The notes beneath the pieces were generated by a model. That model did not search any database, was not told where the DNA came from, and was given only the letters and a program-made list of their open reading frames with translations. The translations under genes were made by a program, and so were the position numbers. A stretch of DNA of 64,000 nucleotides from the sequence record PZ179880.1; one strand, written 5' to 3'. Below are positions 1 through 55,293 of this stretch, piece by piece; position 1 is the stretch's first letter, and each line of letters starts with the position of its first letter. The DNA is from a phage.

Positions 1-82
1 AGAATTTAGATGTAGTCAGTTCAGCAGTCATTTTAGAAGTGGAAGCTTTAATCAAACGGGATTTTAAATCTGCAATAGACAT
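1..82 (-). CDS. uvsX: RecA-like recombinase UvsX, N-terminal 27 codons only; gene continues past the window start
   Basis: Minus-strand ATG at 80-82; translation MSIADLKSRLIKASTSKMTAELTTSKF resembles the T4 UvsX N-terminus; position upstream of the beta-gt locus fits the T4 map. Confidence 0.7.
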   Translation of the reverse strand, partial: MSIADLKSRLIKASTSKMTAELTTSKF

Positions 83-159: not shown

Positions 160-1008
160 TTAATCAACTGCTATCGGATGAATAGCATTAAACTTATGAA
201 ATGCTTCTGATTTTTCTTTGCGCGAAACACACATGCGAAGAACCTTTAATGGCTCGTCTTCTTCACCCAACGATTTTCGTTTTTCGATATTAGAAGTTTT
301 CCAACGAGCTTGCTCTGGAAACTCTCTATTGATTTGCTCAAGCGCTCTATTATGTTTAGAATTACTACGAATTGAACTGCACCCGCCAGGAGCTTGTGCT
401 TTTCCAGATACAACCAGATATTTGAACAAGGCCAAATGCGGATAACCTTGATTAATTAAATTGAGAAATGCATACATATCTTCGCATAAATCAATTTTTC
501 CATACCCAATTTGTTCTGTTGTAAGTTTTCCAAGGTCATACCATGTATTCGTGAATCCATATGAATTTTCACGATAATTACCCCAAGATGAAGTAATTTT
601 AAAAATAGGTAGACGAGCATGGCCATGATAATACCCGCAATCCATGGCATCTTCAACGTATTGAATTAATTCATAGAACTGTTCACGGGTTAATTGATTA
701 ATTTTATCTACGCAGCGACGATCATCTTTCTTTCGCATTGAACTCATACGAATAGTAGTATCATCATCGATCATCCAAATTCGCTGACCTGCATACATAT
801 CAGTAATTGCTTTACGAGTTCCAGCAATTCCATTAACATCATCAGGAATAGTTATAATTTTAGCTCTAGACCCATAAGCGTCATAATAAGCTTTTTCTTC
901 GTGTTTACGTACTACAATATGAGGTTCATAATCAGATGGAAACATATCAAGGGCAGAAACTGCCCCTACGCGTTGATAGCTTGGAATTACGAATTGAATC
1001 ATTTCCAC
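160..1008 (-). CDS. Glycosyltransferase, GT-A-like with DxD motif (IWMIDDDTTI), at the locus where T4 carries beta-glucosyltransferase; possibly a beta-alpha-gt-like DNA-modifying enzyme
   Basis: 282 aa ORF between uvsX and gene 42; DDD motif typical of nucleotide-sugar transferases; no resemblance to T4 beta-gt as I recall it. Confidence 0.55.
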   Translation of the reverse strand: MEMIQFVIPSYQRVGAVSALDMFPSDYEPHIVVRKHEEKAYYDAYGSRAKIITIPDDVNGIAGTRKAITDMYAGQRIWMIDDDTTIRMSSMRKKDDRRCVDKINQLTREQFYELIQYVEDAMDCGYYHGHARLPIFKITSSWGNYRENSYGFTNTWYDLGKLTTEQIGYGKIDLCEDMYAFLNLINQGYPHLALFKYLVVSGKAQAPGGCSSIRSNSKHNRALEQINREFPEQARWKTSNIEKRKSLGEEDEPLKVLRMCVSRKEKSEAFHKFNAIHPIAVD

Positions 1009-1739
1009 TCACCGTTATAATCTTTTTTCGCAATATGAGTTTCGCCAGTTTTCCACCAATGGTCAACCAAGTAAAAATGACGGGAATACACATGAAGACT
1101 TCCGACATTCCATATAATGGAACCCGCTTTATACTGGCGAGTTGAATCACCTGCATTCAAATCAGATACTAATTTATCTAGTACGTATTTTTGCCACGCA
1201 TAATCATTGCGGAATCCGAAGACCACGTCATTTGAGCGCATGTTAACTACTGCATTGACTTTCTTATCACGAATCAGATACTGTACTGTATTCGTACACA
1301 TGAAATCTGACATACCATCTTTATTGTAGTCAAACTGCATGGATGGACGAGTATAAATCATGATACCACGCCGAGAATCAGGATTTTGACCAAGTTCAGC
1401 TAAACACATATCATACTGGGCATAGTTATCTTCTGACCAAATAGCCCAACCATAATTCGAGTTAATTTCGCCTTTAGAAGATGCTACCTGCTGCCAAATC
1501 TTTGGTGTTTCACCTGGAATATCTTTAACAAACAAGCTCTTAGATTTATACCATTCAAGTTCGCGCTGAATGTATTCATCATTAAGAGCACCAAAAATAA
1601 ACGGTTCATCTGCTACAAATGATGCGCCAATAATTTCAATAGTTTTAACACCAGTTTTATCAACTACGAAATCTTTTTCTTTTAATGCAAGCCCCAAATG
1701 AAGACGGATTTCTTCAACTGTCATAGAGTCATTAATCAT
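999..1739 (-). CDS. 42: dCMP hydroxymethylase
   Basis: 246 aa, near-identical to remembered T4 gp42 (MI.DSMTVEEIRLHLGLALKEKDFVVDKTG...). Confidence 0.95.
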   Translation of the reverse strand: MINDSMTVEEIRLHLGLALKEKDFVVDKTGVKTIEIIGASFVADEPFIFGALNDEYIQRELEWYKSKSLFVKDIPGETPKIWQQVASSKGEINSNYGWAIWSEDNYAQYDMCLAELGQNPDSRRGIMIYTRPSMQFDYNKDGMSDFMCTNTVQYLIRDKKVNAVVNMRSNDVVFGFRNDYAWQKYVLDKLVSDLNAGDSTRQYKAGSIIWNVGSLHVYSRHFYLVDHWWKTGETHIAKKDYNGEWK

Positions 1740-12145: not shown

Positions 12146-13348
12146 TTATTTTGTAATAATGTCAAACTGTTCTTTAAAGCAGAAGCTTGAATCTTGATGC
12201 TGATACAAAAATTCATATGCTTTTTCTCGCTCACGGTCATAAAGAGCTCGGTCAGATGACAGTTCTTTAATACGTTCAAACGTTGATTCCATATCATTTT
12301 CATCAAACCAAATGATACCGCTATCATGCGAGGTCAAAGGAGTATTATCAACACGGAATTTTAAATTTTCGCCAGTAGATTTCCAAAATACCGGAATTGT
12401 TCCACATGCACCAAGCTCGAGATGAGTATATTCTAAAGAACGTTGTAGATATTTTTTGTCCAACTTACTCAGCTGATAACCAAATCCGGATTTACTCATG
12501 CGTTCAAGCATTTCGCTATTTACATAACGGTCAAGAATTTGCGTTGGCAAATTAGGAGCAATTTTAATTTGGTCTACTTGATGAAGACGATAATACTCGT
12601 ATGGAATTCCTTTTTCTTTAATAGGAATGAACGCTGGAGAACGTTCCAGACCTTCCATAATAGTACTTAGTCCTGCAGGTTTAAGATGTTTTTCATGAAA
12701 ATCAAACATCTGATAAAAACCTTTCCATGTAGTCGTACGACCAATCCAACGGTTGATATTCATGTTAATTTCAGAAACATCTTTCCAGTAGGTTGATCTA
12801 ACCTTCGCAATATCCATAGGAGGCTGAAAGTTATATACTGTCGGCGCTTCTTCAATATCATCAAACAAAGAAACTGTTTCAGGATACCATTCTTTCATCA
12901 GAACTTTATTAAAATCGCCATTATCAGAATGACTAAAAATAACATCAGCTCGACGAACAGTTTCTTCTAATCCCAAATTTCGGCGCAAAGAAAGAGAAGA
13001 ATGGTCATGTTGATAAACTACAACACGAACCGAAGGTTTAATGTTATCAATAATTTTTTTATAGTTATTAATAGTGTCTTCTTCAACTGAAGTAGCAGGA
13101 ACTGAATTGATAATTAGAATATCACAATCATTTACCAGCTTAAGTGTTTTATCGTATTCTTTTGCCAATAAAACCGGAATTGAAAATGATTTATAATCAT
13201 GCGCACAATTACGAGTAAATGATTTATCTTTAGCATAAACCAAAGTTACTTCATGACCATTTTTAATAAACCAATCACGCTGCTCAAGAGAAAATTTAGT
13301 TACACCGCAACCTTCAAGACCTCGAGCCATAAAAATACATACTTTCAT
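12146..13348 (-). CDS. agt: DNA alpha-glucosyltransferase
   Basis: 400 aa, closely resembles T4 alpha-gt (M.V/ICIFMARGLEGCGVTKF...). Confidence 0.92.
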   Translation of the reverse strand: MKVCIFMARGLEGCGVTKFSLEQRDWFIKNGHEVTLVYAKDKSFTRNCAHDYKSFSIPVLLAKEYDKTLKLVNDCDILIINSVPATSVEEDTINNYKKIIDNIKPSVRVVVYQHDHSSLSLRRNLGLEETVRRADVIFSHSDNGDFNKVLMKEWYPETVSLFDDIEEAPTVYNFQPPMDIAKVRSTYWKDVSEINMNINRWIGRTTTWKGFYQMFDFHEKHLKPAGLSTIMEGLERSPAFIPIKEKGIPYEYYRLHQVDQIKIAPNLPTQILDRYVNSEMLERMSKSGFGYQLSKLDKKYLQRSLEYTHLELGACGTIPVFWKSTGENLKFRVDNTPLTSHDSGIIWFDENDMESTFERIKELSSDRALYDREREKAYEFLYQHQDSSFCFKEQFDIITK

Positions 13349-13591
13349 TTAATATCCTCTTTGTTTTGGTTTATTTTACCAAAAATTTATAAAGCAATAT
13401 AGGAGCCGAAGCTCCTATCCACATAATACGCCATACAGAGGCTCGTTAGAACTTTTAAATTTTATGCGCTTATATTTTATAGTTCCTTCTGCTTTAGCTT
13501 TATCATGAGACTCTTTAAAGCGTCTCATCATTTCCTCTTTAGAGGAACGAATTTTATTATAATCTATTTCAGAAGTCTGGGTGTTCATCTT

Positions 13592-17390: not shown

Positions 17391-17861
17391 TTAATCATGT
17401 TTCCACACCCCATCGGTATTTGACCAAAGTCGCTGATTATCTGAACCTCGCCACAGCTTTTTGGTCGGAAGATTTTTCTCATACTTCCCATCAATAATAA
17501 CATCAACATATTTAAGCATTTCTAGTTGTTTAATATCTTCAAACTTGTACCCTGTCCACAACCAAATGCTTTTATTTGGATAAAGATTTTTTACTGTTTG
17601 AACAATGCAATGAACAACATCTCGGTTATCAGGATAAAGAGGGTCTCCTCCAGTTATAGTTAATCCTTCTATATAATCATTATTCAAACATTCAATTAAT
17701 TGTTCTAGTGTTTCACCAGTGAATGGAACGCCATTTCTAGCATTCCATGTTGATTTATTATAACACCCTTCACATTTATGCAAACACCCCGTAACGAAAA
17801 GAACGACCCTGCATCCAGGGCCATTCACAAAATCACAGGGATAAAATCTATCGTAATTCAT
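17391..17861 (-). CDS. nrdG: Anaerobic ribonucleotide reductase activating protein (radical SAM)
   Basis: 156 aa; cysteine cluster CLHKCEGC. Confidence 0.92.
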   Translation of the reverse strand: MNYDRFYPCDFVNGPGCRVVLFVTGCLHKCEGCYNKSTWNARNGVPFTGETLEQLIECLNNDYIEGLTITGGDPLYPDNRDVVHCIVQTVKNLYPNKSIWLWTGYKFEDIKQLEMLKYVDVIIDGKYEKNLPTKKLWRGSDNQRLWSNTDGVWKHD

Positions 17862-19675
17862 TGGTGTTTAACCCTATGCATGATTTCTTTATTTTTGCCA
17901 AGATTAAATCCGCGCTCGTTCGGATTTCCCAAATAACCGCAAGTTCTTCTTATTGTGTTCATCTTTTTAGGATCAGTTTCTCCACAAATAGAACAAACAA
18001 ACCCGTTTTCAGTAGGAGTCATTTCATGGGTACTTCCACACGTAAAACATTTATCTACTGGCATGTTAACACCAAAATAATCTAAATGTTGTGCAGCATA
18101 ATCCCAGACAGCCTCAAGACCTTTTAGGTTATTTTTCATATCAGGAAGTTCAACATAAGAAATGTGACCACCTGTCGCAATGAAATGATATGGGGCTTCG
18201 CGAGAAATCTTTTCAAACGGAGTAATATTTTCTTCTACTGAAACATGGAAACTGTTAGTGTACCATCCTTTATCGGTAACATCTTTTACACTTCCATATT
18301 TTTTTGTATCAAGTTTACAGAAGCGATAACAAAGGTTTTCAGCAGGAGTCGAATACAAACTAAAAGCAAACCCAGTTCTTTCAGCCCACTGTTTAAGACG
18401 AGCATTCATTTTAGTTAAAATTTCTTGTCCAATATCACGACCGACAAGAATATTCAATTCATGAATACCAATGTATCCTAAAGACACTGAACTTCTACCG
18501 TTTTTAAATAACTCAATTATGTCGTCATCAGGTTTAAGACGAACCCCGAATGCACCTTCTTGGTAAAGAATAGGAGCAACAGTCGCTTTAACTCCTTTTA
18601 AGGAACTAATTCTACACATCAAAGCTTCAAAACATAAATCCATTCGCTCATTGAACAATTCAGTAAATTTCTGTTCATTGAACTGTGTTCCAATATAAGA
18701 ATCCAACGCAATACGAGGAAGATTCAGTGTTACAACACCAAGATTATTACGTCCATCAAGAATTTCATTACCGGTTGAATCTTTCCACGCGCTCAAGAAA
18801 CTGCGGCAACCCATTGGAGAAACAGGAATAGATGAGCCGGTGATAGCTTTATTGTTCTTAGCTGAAATAATATCAGGATACATCCTTTTGCTTGCACACT
18901 CTAGAGCAAGCTGCTTAATATCATAGTTCGGATCGTCTTTATAAAGATTAACACCTTCTTCAACGAACATAACAAGCTTAGGGAAAATAGGAGTTATCCC
19001 ATCACGACCGAGACCTTTAATACGATTTTTCAGAATTGCTTTCTGAATCATTCGTTCAGTCCAGTCAGTTCCCGTACCAAATGTAATTGTTACAAAAGGA
19101 GTCTGTCCGTTTGAACTAAAGAGAGTATTTACTTCATATTCATAAGCTTGGAATGCATCGTATACATCTTTTTCTGTTTTAGATTGAGCATAATTTAACG
19201 CATCAGCGATTTGCCATTTTTCTGCATCCTCAATATGTTTTGCATAGGTGCGTTTAACATAAGGAGAAAGTACTTTATCTACATTAGCAAAAGTCGTTCC
19301 GCCATATTGATGGGAAGCAACTTGCGCAGTAATTTGTGCCATAATTGCAGTAGCAACGCCAATTGATTTAGGAGTTTCAATCTGCGCATTACCAAGCTTA
19401 AATCCGTTCTCAAGCATTCCTTTTAAATCTACTAAACAGCAATTAGTAAATGGAAGAGCAGGGGAATAATCAATATCATGAAAATGAATAATTCCGCTTT
19501 CATGCGCTTTCATAATAAAAGACGGGACCATATTTTTGGCAATGTGTTTAGACACAATACCAGCCATAAGGTCCCGTTGAGTTGGAAAAACACGAGAATC
19601 TTTATTAGCATTCTCGTTCAAAAGGTCTTTATTAGTTTTATGAATCAATCCTTCAATTTCTTTTTCAATTGTCAT
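17858..19675 (-). CDS. nrdD: Anaerobic ribonucleoside-triphosphate reductase (glycyl radical enzyme), uninterrupted
   Basis: 605 aa continuous ORF; C-terminal Zn-ribbon cysteines and glycyl-radical region. Confidence 0.95.
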   Translation of the reverse strand: MTIEKEIEGLIHKTNKDLLNENANKDSRVFPTQRDLMAGIVSKHIAKNMVPSFIMKAHESGIIHFHDIDYSPALPFTNCCLVDLKGMLENGFKLGNAQIETPKSIGVATAIMAQITAQVASHQYGGTTFANVDKVLSPYVKRTYAKHIEDAEKWQIADALNYAQSKTEKDVYDAFQAYEYEVNTLFSSNGQTPFVTITFGTGTDWTERMIQKAILKNRIKGLGRDGITPIFPKLVMFVEEGVNLYKDDPNYDIKQLALECASKRMYPDIISAKNNKAITGSSIPVSPMGCRSFLSAWKDSTGNEILDGRNNLGVVTLNLPRIALDSYIGTQFNEQKFTELFNERMDLCFEALMCRISSLKGVKATVAPILYQEGAFGVRLKPDDDIIELFKNGRSSVSLGYIGIHELNILVGRDIGQEILTKMNARLKQWAERTGFAFSLYSTPAENLCYRFCKLDTKKYGSVKDVTDKGWYTNSFHVSVEENITPFEKISREAPYHFIATGGHISYVELPDMKNNLKGLEAVWDYAAQHLDYFGVNMPVDKCFTCGSTHEMTPTENGFVCSICGETDPKKMNTIRRTCGYLGNPNERGFNLGKNKEIMHRVKHQ

Positions 19676-29278: not shown

Positions 29279-30292
29279 TCATTTATAATAACTTCGGTGG
29301 TTTTCAAGATAAACCCTCTCAAGGAAGTCATCCCAAAAACCCATGTCTACTTTTTGCTGCATACCGTTCTTAGAAGCTTCAGTAGATGCTGCTTCTACTT
29401 GATCGACCACATCTTCCAAAAACTCTTGAACCGTTTTAAATGGATGTTTACCCAACTTCACGTCGAGAATAAATGGAGCATCTTGGAGTGGATAAACCAA
29501 GTCACCAGTTTTGTAAATTTCCAATAGTTGGAGTCCACCACGGCAAGCATGACTCAGAGCTTTCCAGTCAATACCTTCATTGGCTTCGGCCTTACGAGCA
29601 CGTTCACCGTATTCAGCATCTAATTTGTTCAGTGACTGCTTAAGCTCAATAAGAGAAAGCGTTGTCTGATATTTACGACCCAACACTGTGTAGAACGTCT
29701 GTGGGCCTGTTTTCTCATGATTATGGAACACCCATTCACAGAATTCGTTTTCTGGAAGACGATGCTTAATATCTTCAACTTTAGTACGACGCTGCTTAAT
29801 GGAACCGTCTTCTTGGTAATCAACCCATTGCTCAGGGATTTGATTAACTACTTTCAATACATCACGTAATGCAGCCAAACGAGAACCCTTAACGCCGTAT
29901 TTAGAAGCTTGCTTACGGACATATCCTAAATAGGATTTCATGTTAGTCGTATAAAAACGAGAACGGTTGTCTTGAATAAACTTCCACACATCAGGCAAAT
30001 CAGATTTAACCACTAGTTCAGGTGGAGTGTGAAGCATATCTAACGCTACAGTTTCACCATCTGCTGCTAATTTAAAGAAATACTTAAGACTATACAATTC
30101 GTGGTCAATATCATCTTTAGTGTTTTTAGATGATGTGTTGTTAGTGTTTTTACTCATGTGCTCTTTAACATTTCCGATAAGAATATCACGAGCAGGAGGA
30201 ACAAAGATTTCTTTAAAATCTACATCAGATTCTGGGGTAGAAGTTCCATAAAGATGACTACCAAAATAGCTTTTCATTACTGTTTTCATCAT
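29279..30292 (-). CDS. Predicted nucleotidyltransferase (Pol-beta superfamily)
   Basis: 337 aa; N-terminal GS-x10-DxD motif (YGSHLYGTSTPESDVDF). Confidence 0.6.
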   Translation of the reverse strand: MMKTVMKSYFGSHLYGTSTPESDVDFKEIFVPPARDILIGNVKEHMSKNTNNTSSKNTKDDIDHELYSLKYFFKLAADGETVALDMLHTPPELVVKSDLPDVWKFIQDNRSRFYTTNMKSYLGYVRKQASKYGVKGSRLAALRDVLKVVNQIPEQWVDYQEDGSIKQRRTKVEDIKHRLPENEFCEWVFHNHEKTGPQTFYTVLGRKYQTTLSLIELKQSLNKLDAEYGERARKAEANEGIDWKALSHACRGGLQLLEIYKTGDLVYPLQDAPFILDVKLGKHPFKTVQEFLEDVVDQVEAASTEASKNGMQQKVDMGFWDDFLERVYLENHRSYYK

Positions 30293-30750
30293 TCAGCCTT
30301 ATATTCAATAACAGGACATACTTTAGCTTTACGAGCTTTTAAAAATTCGACGATAATCGATTTCTTGGGTTGAATAGGAGGTAAACCTTTATACGCCCTA
30401 TCAATATTTTCTACGTGTAAAGCATAATCCTTTTTCCATTTATAATCTTTATATTTTTCACGCAAATGCGCAGGAATAACAAATGAACCGATAATAAGTA
30501 AAACAAGCAAAATGGCAAGTATAAATGCTGATGGAATAAGAGTCCATAAACTACCAAAAATAAGCCATTTCTGTATGATTTCTGCACAGATGATAGTTAG
30601 ACCTACGAGTATAGTACATCCGAAAAAAGAAACGAAAAATGTAGGGATAACAATAGACCAAAAGTATGCGCATAGTGTCTTAGGTCGTTTCCATTCGTCG
30701 TTAAACATTTTAAATAATTTATAGTGCCAAGAGCTTTCATTAATAATCAT
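30289..30750 (-). CDS. Membrane protein
   Basis: 153 aa with multiple hydrophobic helices. Confidence 0.55.
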   Translation of the reverse strand: MIINESSWHYKLFKMFNDEWKRPKTLCAYFWSIVIPTFFVSFFGCTILVGLTIICAEIIQKWLIFGSLWTLIPSAFILAILLVLLIIGSFVIPAHLREKYKDYKWKKDYALHVENIDRAYKGLPPIQPKKSIIVEFLKARKAKVCPVIEYKAE

Positions 30751-30752
30751 AA

Positions 30753-31274
30753 TTATCCTTTCATTGAAGGTGTAACAGTTGTTAAATACTTAATCATAGC
30801 TTCAGCTTCTGATTTTGATAATGAAATTTCTTCATTGTTTTGACGAATAGAAATAAAATCCGGATGACGGTCACCACCAGCTTTTAAAACACACATATAA
30901 GTATCAGTTTCATCTTCAATATCTGAAATGATTGAAGCAGTTCCACACGAATGTGGTTTTTGATAAATCAATACAGCTTTTCTTCCACCATTTGACTGTT
31001 CATAAACTTTTAATACATCAAACAAATCACTTCTTTTATCAATAGCTAAAATGTTATTTTCATCTTCAATGTTAAATCCTTCGGATACTTCATAAAGTGT
31101 CACCCATAAATCACCTATATCGATAGTAGCATTTTCCTTTCCATGACTTTCAAGAGCATGACAAATTTTCTTAATTTCGTCATAACTCATTTTAATAATA
31201 TCATCTCCTTGAATAAGGAAGATGTCATTTTTAAATTCAACACGAATTAAACCGCTTCCACTTGAAATAAACAT
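30753..31274 (-). CDS. Hypothetical protein (tandem paralogue A)
   Basis: 173 aa; C-terminus EAEAMIKYLTTVTPSM resembles the next ORF. Confidence 0.55.
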   Translation of the reverse strand: MFISSGSGLIRVEFKNDIFLIQGDDIIKMSYDEIKKICHALESHGKENATIDIGDLWVTLYEVSEGFNIEDENNILAIDKRSDLFDVLKVYEQSNGGRKAVLIYQKPHSCGTASIISDIEDETDTYMCVLKAGGDRHPDFISIRQNNEEISLSKSEAEAMIKYLTTVTPSMKG

Positions 31275-39582: not shown

Positions 39583-40056
39583 TTATTTGAATGATTTGAC
39601 ATACTGAACAGAACCTTTGCTATTCACAAAGGCGATTTTACCATTTTTGTTATACATGGTGGCAGTACGCTGATAGCCATAAGTTTGCTTACCAGATTGA
39701 TAACCAACTAATGCAAAATTATCTTCGCCCATTTTATTCTGCTTAGCGCGGATGCGTTCATGGCCGTGTGCCATAAGAACCTTAGCATCACCAGTTGCAA
39801 TGGATCTACGAGTTTTTTCATCTTCAACTGTATTAACAAAATCGTCAAATGAATCAAATTTAGCATGGGATTTATTATACAGTTTTCCATCTACTGCATA
39901 ATTATATCCCTGTACATCCATCTCAACTTCTGTACCATCATCCAATACAGCAGTGATTTTTTGACCTTTTTTAAATTTCAAAAGATCAGTAAAAGATTCA
40001 GCAATAATTTGAGAATTAATAGCTGCTTCAGTGATAAATTCTTGATATGTTTTCAT
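39583..40056 (-). CDS. Internal head protein with capsid-targeting leader
   Basis: 157 aa; N-terminus MKTYQEFITEA matches the T4 IP capsid-targeting consensus. Confidence 0.7.
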   Translation of the reverse strand: MKTYQEFITEAAINSQIIAESFTDLLKFKKGQKITAVLDDGTEVEMDVQGYNYAVDGKLYNKSHAKFDSFDDFVNTVEDEKTRRSIATGDAKVLMAHGHERIRAKQNKMGEDNFALVGYQSGKQTYGYQRTATMYNKNGKIAFVNSKGSVQYVKSFK

Positions 40057-40540: not shown

Positions 40541-41343
<803 letters not shown>

Positions 41344-44671: not shown

Positions 44672-45235
44672 TTATTTACCTAGTTTAGTTATTATAGCTT
44701 CGGCAGCAGCTTTTAGTTTAGATGCGGTGTTAATACGATTTTTAATTTCAGTATACGCATCGCCAAGAACGTCAAGGCTATCAGAATAAACACTTACACT
44801 ATTGCGTTCGCTATTTGAAATAGAACCTTTAGTTTTACGATCAAAATCGGTGTACACGTCTTGAAGATCACGGGCTGCCTTCTTTGCATCATCCAATGCA
44901 TCAAGAGCTTTATTCAAAGCATTAACATATTTTTTAGTGTCAAACATATTCTTAGAAATTTTAACAGGTGCACGTTCAGGAGTAGCTAAGGCAGATTTAG
45001 GAACCTGAGCGCCTGATGCTAATTTCTTAGAAATTTTGAAAAATGCTTTATTGAATTTATTTTCTTGACTCATCGTAAAAGAACTATTATCAATGTTATA
45101 CATTTCAATAGCTTTAGCTTTCCACTTAAGAAAATCGCCACGGTCTTTTGGGTCCAATTGGAAGAATACTTTAGTAAGATCTGCTTCAGATGGTAATTTT
45201 GCTGCTTCGGTTAAAAATTCGGCATAGGTTTTCAT
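44672..45235 (-). CDS. Internal head protein with capsid-targeting leader
   Basis: 187 aa; N-terminus MKTYAEFLTEAAKL. Confidence 0.65.
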   Translation of the reverse strand: MKTYAEFLTEAAKLPSEADLTKVFFQLDPKDRGDFLKWKAKAIEMYNIDNSSFTMSQENKFNKAFFKISKKLASGAQVPKSALATPERAPVKISKNMFDTKKYVNALNKALDALDDAKKAARDLQDVYTDFDRKTKGSISNSERNSVSVYSDSLDVLGDAYTEIKNRINTASKLKAAAEAIITKLGK

Positions 45236-48076: not shown

Positions 48077-48310
48077 TTATTTTTTACGAAAAATTGATTT
48101 ATTTTCTGCTGCCCATTTTTCAATAACTGCAGCAGGACCAGTAACAACAATTTTATCACCGTAATCTTCTGCGGCGAGTTGACCGAAATTATCTAATGCA
48201 TCACGAAGAACTCCATGAGGCATTTCACCCATTTTATCTTTCTTGCCAGTGTAAATAAACTCAACTTTTACATCAGCAGTTTCAGCAATAAATTCTTGGT
48301 AAGTTTTCAT
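48077..48310 (-). CDS. Internal head protein with capsid-targeting leader, at the ipI locus
   Basis: 77 aa; N-terminus MKTYQEFIAE is the T4 capsid-targeting consensus; early promoter upstream. Confidence 0.7.
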   Translation of the reverse strand: MKTYQEFIAETADVKVEFIYTGKKDKMGEMPHGVLRDALDNFGQLAAEDYGDKIVVTGPAAVIEKWAAENKSIFRKK

Positions 48311-50479: not shown

Positions 50480-51154
50480 TTAATTTATTAGACTTCTTAA
50501 ACGAGCAGAAGTCATAAATGGAAATTTTTCTAAAGTTGGCTTTCGCCAATATCTTGGATGACAAGTTGATTTAAAATCAAGAACAATTTTCTTTGCTTCA
50601 TCAATAGTGCTAACTCCAAAGTTATCTAACATTATTTTCTTTTCTTTTTCCCACCGTTTATTAGCTAAAGCAGATTGAAGCTTTTTGTTTTTAAATGTAT
50701 CATTTTTTCTAGAATGAGTTGTGCCTTGTGTCGGACTCCATCCTCTTCCTAAAATAAATCCCTCAGGAATTATATCTCCATCATGCAATTTTATACATCT
50801 TTTACCATTATTATAATATTTTCGTCCAGTTTGTGTATTTGAAATATTATTTGCATGTTTTCTTTTTAACCAACCATAAACTTTATTATTTCTCCTAACA
50901 TATTTAGTTGAAACCGTCATTTTTATGGCCGCATAAGATAATTTTAAAGAATTTGGGTGTATTTTTACTAATAGTTGATGTGCAACATAATGCTCTTCTG
51001 GAGTTAAATCAACCAAGTTAGAAGCATCATTACTACCGCCTAAACATTTCGGAATAATATGATGTCTTTCTTTATATCCAGTAAGGGCTCTATTGCGAGC
51101 CCTATCAATTAGTGAATTATAAATTTTTTCATAATTCATCGTACATTGCTCCAA
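50480..51154 (-). CDS. HNH homing endonuclease (free-standing)
   Basis: 224 aa; motif [36 protein letters not shown]; inserted between genes 3 and 2. Confidence 0.8.
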
Positions 51155-54764: not shown

Positions 54765-55293
54765 TATACTTCCAATGAGCGCTGATTTAGGAGAATCCAT
54801 GGAAGGTTCTTCTATCGACGTCACCTTTACCGCTCAATTAGAAACAGGTGAAACGTTAGTATCTATAAATATAACTAGTTACGAAGAAACTCCTGGGGTT
54901 TTAGTAGAAGAAAATCGCTTATACGGAACGTATGAATCTGTATTTGGATTTGGAAATGACGCATTGAAATATCGTTTAGATGATGAATTTAAAACTGCTG
55001 CTTCATGGGAAGACCTTCCAACTGATTCTAATACTCAGTTATATCTATGGAAAGCTCCTCAAAACCTCCAGAAGACATTCACTTATGAAGTAACATTAAT
55101 ATATGACTACCAAGAACAAAGTGAATCTGGAGGTTCTGGCAGTAATTCTAGGTCATCTTCTGATACTACTGAACCAACGGATCCTCCTGCTCCAATAAGA
55201 AAAACTCTTGTTAAAAATTACACAAAAACTATAGTTGGAAATTGGAGCCGTTGGGCTAATAAATTGAGAAGCTACGTATATGAGAGGCAATAA
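54736..55293 (+). CDS. Hypothetical baseplate-region protein (5.1-like); start uncertain
   Basis: 185 aa ORF overlapping the gp5 3' end. Confidence 0.55.

Follow-up and report, generated by a model that had tools for sequence, protein, structure and literature searches.

Which enzyme takes the place of T4 beta-gt in this phage, and which modified bases would its virion DNA carry? At the locus where T4 has segA and b-gt, the 64,000-nt stretch of phage DNA that was analysed (PZ179880.1; hereafter the window) contains an ORF of 282 codons on the minus strand, running from a GTG at 1008 to a stop codon at 160-162 and including the sequence IWMIDDDTTI. A preliminary description, made from the sequence, had placed a 282-aa protein with this motif between uvsX and gene 42. 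The ORF and its flanks were confirmed, uvsX starting at 82 on the minus strand, but the length of the protein was not: translation almost certainly begins at the ATG at 1002-1000, giving 280 aa. This ATG is favoured over the GTG at 1008 because it overlaps the stop codon of gene 42 in an ATGA, because a Shine-Dalgarno-like GGTGA lies 6 nt upstream of it, and because 280 aa is the annotated length in all homologues, including those of T2, NR1 and many other phages. On these three grounds, the GTG was ruled out as the start. The reference proteins of PMC6024577 likewise give 280 aa for T2. The same ATGA overlap is annotated in T2, T6 (record AP018814) and NR1, and suggests that translation of the gene may be coupled to that of gene 42. 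The features of the locus are collected in Table 1.

Table 1. Features of the window discussed in the text
Feature	Coordinates	Strand	Remarks
uvsX, 5' end; downstream flank, cut by window edge	1..82	-	translation MSIADLKSRLIKAS...; coordinates same in NR1
ba-gt (ggt / TAGT), beta-glucosyl-HMC-alpha-glucosyltransferase	160..1002	-	280 aa + stop codon 160-162
D79-D80-D81 codons, DxD metal/nucleotide-sugar binding motif, directly after strand E74-78	760..768	-	invariant in 48/48 family members
R11 codon, N-terminal IPSYQR motif, end of strand 1	970..972	-	family-invariant, intact in window
ATGA overlap, ba-gt start codon (1002-1000) / gene 42 stop TGA (1001-999)	999..1002	-	read from sequence
Gene 42, dCMP hydroxymethylase, hmC precursor maker	999..1739	-	97.6% identical to T4 gp42; annotated so in homologous records
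alpha-gt, DNA alpha-glucosyltransferase, 400 aa, T2/RB-type allele	12146..13348	-	91.5% identical to T4 alpha-gt
T4-coordinate jumps	13339-13364, 17841-17861, 19137-19140, 30294-31255, 55292-55293		blastn map

The protein matched PHROG 842, "beta-glucosyl-HMC-alpha-glucosyltransferase", with E=7e-89, and the Pfam family PF20691 (TET-associated glycosyltransferase, TAGT) with 38.3 bits over profile positions 2-205 of 205, the curated gathering score being 27.5. When 50,697 phage records were searched by tblastn with the window protein, 690 matched. The PHROG E-value, the PF20691 score above cutoff and these matching records together indicate that ba-gt is not a chance ORF. The matching genes were at least 95% identical in 472 records, nearly all from Tequatrovirus, and that of Shigella phage SF2-1 was 100% identical at the protein level. 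In the same search, relatives in phages of Klebsiella, Enterobacter and Salmonella were ~63-65% identical, and that of Serratia phage Muldoon 47%. The T2 protein was 97.9% identical over 280/280 aa, the annotated T6 protein 97.3% over 261 aa and the EH2 protein 98.6%. These comparisons bear out the T2/T6 gentiobiosyl type, which the preliminary description had put forward as one possibility. The neighbourhood agrees: over its first 2.6 kb, the window shares ~97% DNA identity and the order of its genes with hundreds of Tequatrovirus genomes, and ba-gt likewise lies between gene 42 and uvsX in T2, T6 and NR1. In NR1, a phage of the Durham Collection, as is EH2, the gene coordinates of the locus are the same as in the window.

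The T2 and T6 genes, whose products are listed in PMC6024577 as reference proteins Q06717 and Q06718, share with the window gene not only position but also the ATGA overlap, the DxD motif and the pairing with alpha-gt; they are the same gene and differ only as alleles. The residues peculiar to the window allele (S23, K33, K92 and I101) are absent from the compared references and all fall in variable columns of the family alignment. That alignment comprised 48 sequences; a first homologue search had yielded 12 relatives, and a subsequent profile search 50, down to ~20% identity. Five residues, R11, R63, D79, D80 and D81, are invariant in the family, and all are intact in the window protein.

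We then considered the fold. The preliminary description had assigned the protein to the GT-A type on account of its DxD motif. Searches of PDB sequences, one with the protein and one with an 11-sequence profile, returned only chance-level matches (TLR4 and IGF2BP3). Since no solved relative was detectable by sequence, the fold was tested by structure comparison. A single-sequence AlphaFold model was unusable (pLDDT 40.4) and was replaced by a run on the 48-sequence alignment, which gave a model with pLDDT 92.7 and pTM 0.90. In a Foldseek comparison with the PDB, this model had 188 matches at E<=0.001, headed by AvpGT, TarP, TarS, WrtF, RmlT and K4 chondroitin polymerase. According to the model, the protein has a GT-A fold, as the assignment had supposed, and the DxD motif follows beta-strand 4; the two Rossmann-like domains of a GT-B fold were not found in it. 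The TAGT of T6 has likewise been described as a GT-A protein, sister to GT2 (PMC13216743). The bacterial GT-A enzymes of the GT2 family (TarP, TarS, SpsA and K4 chondroitin polymerase) are only 7-16% identical to the window protein, a relation undetectable by sequence profile against the PDB, and they act on polysaccharide or teichoic acid, whereas the acceptor of ba-gt is glucosylated DNA.

The beta-glucosyltransferase of T4 (PF09198, PDB 1JG7) uses UDP-glucose as donor and, like ba-gt, forms a beta linkage, also on modified DNA of the phage. Its gene and the window ba-gt share a syntenic position beside gene 42, but the proteins are not alike: the best BLASTP alignment had E=3.3 over 8 residues, and a Pfam search with the window protein gave no PF09198 match. 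Nor did direct comparison reveal any similarity between the window protein and T4 alpha-gt. The T4 beta-gt is a GT-B enzyme (PMC13216743) with hmC as acceptor, whereas the window protein is of GT-A type and its acceptor would be the first glucose. With neither sequence similarity nor fold in common, identity with T4 beta-gt was rejected. T4 beta-gt and SegA, used as tblastn queries, found nothing anywhere in the window, and the stretch 71-1016 had no blastn match to T4. The window thus differs from the T4 locus in lacking segA as well, and the replacement of beta-gt proposed earlier holds.

The preliminary description had also entertained another sugar, naming the arabinosyltransferase of RB69. 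The RB69/Mosigvirus candidate for that enzyme, RB69 ORF003c, is also a phage enzyme that sugars modified cytosine in the DNA of a T4 relative. However, ORF003c adjoins rIIA, unlike ba-gt, and its comparison with the window protein gave a BLASTP E-value of 1.2 and an hhalign probability of 0.08%. An RB69-type arabinosyltransferase was accordingly discarded.

As first described, both partner genes are present, with gene 42 and alpha-gt products 97.6% and 91.5% identical to those of T4. The alpha-gt protein is 99.5% identical to that of T2, 99.8% to that of EH2 and 91.8% to that of T6. Two alpha-gt alleles, ~9% apart, can be distinguished: one in T4 and T6 (98.8% mutual identity) and one in T2, the RB phages, EH2 and the window (99.5-99.8%). 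T6 carries the T4-type allele; therefore, alpha-gt allele and presence of ba-gt are uncoupled in that phage.

The gene pair itself is familiar. PMC6024577 describes a T4 a-gt homologue paired with a T2 ba-gt homologue in twelve sequenced "RB" phages; in its Table 1, these have an a-gt 91-92% identical to that of T4, no b-gt and a ba-gt 98-99% identical to that of T2. The window has the configuration given there for the RB phages. Elsewhere, the usual arrangement was reported to be TAGT with alpha-GT or beta-GT, and alpha-GT and beta-GT occurred together in only 6 of 753 genomes (PMC13216743). The pairing of alpha-gt with ba-gt is the commonest arrangement in Tequatrovirus, and the alpha plus beta pair of T4 is the rarity. 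The novelty initially attributed to the locus was thus overrated, judging from PMC13216743 and Table 1 of PMC6024577: ba-gt in the place that beta-gt has in T4 is the ordinary arrangement in Tequatrovirus, has already been described and represents no new biology.

Overall, these data make it very probable that 160..1002 encodes a ba-gt of the T2/T6 type, making gentiobiosyl-hydroxymethylcytosine (gentiobiosyl-hmC). In the proposed pathway, gp42 would make hydroxymethyl-dCMP, to be incorporated into the phage DNA. The alpha-gt would glucosylate most hmC residues in alpha linkage, and ba-gt, as a GT-A enzyme of DxD type with UDP-glucose as donor, would join a second glucose to the first through a beta-1,6 linkage, yielding gentiobiosyl-hmC. 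In the absence of beta-gt, hmC residues missed by alpha-gt should therefore stay unglucosylated. The virion DNA is predicted to contain hmC, alpha-glucosyl-hmC and gentiobiosyl-hmC, and to be free of beta-glucosyl-hmC.

The sugar, linkage and acceptor ascribed here to the window enzyme are those of near-identical homologues studied by others. That it would form a beta-1,6 linkage with UDP-glucose as donor is argued by analogy with a deletion in T6 and with HPLC/MS of EH2 and NR1. Deletion of ba-gt from T6 abolished the second glucose, left only alpha-glucosyl-hmC and increased sensitivity to Brig1 (PMC11078745); the same mutant was also used in bioRxiv 10.64898/2026.02.25.707755. In Durham Tequatroviruses with alpha-GT and TAGT, HPLC/MS revealed hmC, alpha-glucosyl-hmC and gentiobiosyl-hmC, and beta-glucosyl-hmC was absent (PMC13390438).

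A member of this family could in principle have another specificity, using a different donor sugar or acting directly on unglucosylated hmC. In PF20691, members are found together with alpha-GT, together with beta-GT or on their own (288/753 genomes; PMC13216743), which means that the acceptor is not the same throughout the family. Distant members are only 20-30% identical, and a NAR 2026 paper suggested differing specificity for TAGT homologues that stand alone or are paired with beta-GT. The window gene, however, is paired with alpha-gt, and its product is 97-100% identical to the T2, T6 and EH2 orthologues, whose products have been determined (PMC11078745, PMC13390438). Direct action on hmC also fits poorly with the approximately quarter to third of hmC that stays unglucosylated in T2, T6 and the Durham phages. 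We consider a different specificity extremely unlikely and retain the transfer of a second glucose as the predicted reaction.

How much of the hmC would be gentiobiosylated is a separate matter. Gentiobiosyl-hmC amounts to ~5% in T2 and ~72% in T6, and EH2 and NR1 contain about one-third hmC and two-thirds gentiobiosyl-hmC (PMC13390438). Among the Durham phages, the ratio of hmC to alpha-glucosyl-hmC to gentiobiosyl-hmC is either 1:~0:2 or, in EL, BGP and Geo, 1:2:2 (PMC13390438); the latter three have the same gene pair, so the EH2 and NR1 proportions are not transferable to the window phage. Because near-identical enzymes give such different levels of gentiobiosylation, the exact base proportions are not predictable with confidence for this phage.

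The low value in T2 raises the possibility that the window ba-gt is present but weak or inactive, with the DNA essentially alpha-monoglucosylated. The T2 gene that accompanies so little gentiobiosyl-hmC is, after all, 97.9% identical to that of the window, and T6 records with apparent lesions, described below, suggest that the gene can be lost or weakened under laboratory conditions. The window copy, by contrast, is full length, has the five invariant residues in place (among them R11, a position occupied by His in T2) and is still linked to gene 42 through the ATGA. An independent isolate has a 100% identical copy. Moreover, the alpha-gt and ba-gt of the window are closest to those of EH2, with its two-thirds gentiobiosyl-hmC (PMC13390438). 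A weak or inactive enzyme is thus very unlikely, and gentiobiosylation by a working ba-gt remains our reading of the locus.

In the T2 gene (AP018813, L001:3001-3843), the codon corresponding to 970-972 of the window encodes His, as in no other phage compared; the residue is Arg in 48/48 family members and in the window. His11 is present in all eight T2 records, which do not differ from one another in DNA sequence. The ba-gt proteins of T2 and EH2 differ only in R11H and P251S. Their alpha-gt proteins are 99.8% identical, and the alpha-gt allele was therefore rejected as an explanation for the difference between the two phages. Judged by these sequences, R11H may be what lowers gentiobiosyl-hmC in T2 to the classical ~5%, when T6 and EH2 have about two-thirds or more, although we hold this proposal to be doubtful. 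A limited search of the literature found no mention of the substitution. If R11H were the cause, the window allele with R11 would predict heavy gentiobiosylation like that of T6 and EH2, and the level of modification in Tequatroviruses would be predictable from residue 11 as a sequence marker.

The two T6 reference records each have an apparent lesion of another kind. In MH550421 (L002:3138-3980), codon 10 of ba-gt is an amber TAG and the gene is annotated from Met20, as a protein of 261 aa. In AP018814 (L004:3135-3974), a 3-nt deletion in a GATGATGAT run removes one Asp, changing the invariant DDD to DD. These lesions are odd for a phage with 72% gentiobiosyl-hmC and may be stock-specific variants; T6 being the classical high-gentiobiosyl phage, its records are to be read with caution. 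The window gene contains neither R11H nor the amber codon nor the one-Asp deletion.

Consensus scanning of positions 1-2700 was not informative: for promoters it gave 19 promoter-like sites, with 11.8±4.1 expected, and for terminators one terminator-like site, with 1.3 expected, located inside a coding region. This site, a 9-bp GC-rich hairpin (TAGGGGCAG-TTT-CTGCCCTTG; 948-968, minus strand) spanning ba-gt codons 12-18, 34 nt into the coding sequence, thus scored as terminator-like at chance frequency. In the record of Yersinia phage fPS-65, the region that matches ba-gt includes an annotated terminator. At the imm.1 position, the minus-strand ORF 2152-2544 has a lipoprotein-like N-terminus (MKIAILVIALGLTGC), and the one family it matches is PHROG 1754, whose function is unknown; the label 'iduronate sulfatase' that it bears in some RefSeq phage records looks like an annotation error.

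Further differences from T4 were evident elsewhere in the window. Judging from the T4-coordinate jumps of the blastn map, the T4 mobile elements segA, mobB, mobC, the nrdD intron with I-TevII, mobD and segC are apparently absent, with two unrelated ORFs (30289-31274) apparently in the place of mobD. Genes 3 and 2 are separated by only 10 bp in T4 (T4 76063-76073); in the window, an insertion between them encodes a 224-aa HNH homing endonuclease (50480-51154, minus strand; PHROG 655, E=2.6e-59). Four minus-strand proteins (39583-40056, 40541-40837, 44672-45235 and 48077-48310) have an N-terminus of the capsid-targeting type, MKTY(Q/S/A)EF, and three of the four match PHROG families of internal virion or head proteins. 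The window has no homologue of T4 IPI or IPIII, and for IPII the only match was a weak one at the N-terminus (E=1.7e-4). IPI of T4 inhibits GmrSD, which targets glucosylated hmC; polymorphism of the internal proteins therefore bears on sensitivity to type IV restriction.

The practical value of these results lies in the correct annotation of the gene and in the prediction of the virion DNA bases. Which defences of the host are effective against the phage depends on the type of sugar that its hmC carries. Gentiobiosyl-hmC withstands the Brig1 glycosylase in vitro (PMC11078745) and the removal of glucose by BapA (bioRxiv 10.64898/2026.02.25.707755), but enzymes of the GmrSD family such as BrxU still cut it (PMC13390438). 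The ba-gt of Bas37 has been linked to evasion of the type I defence Mokosh (bioRxiv 10.1101/2025.11.20.689424).
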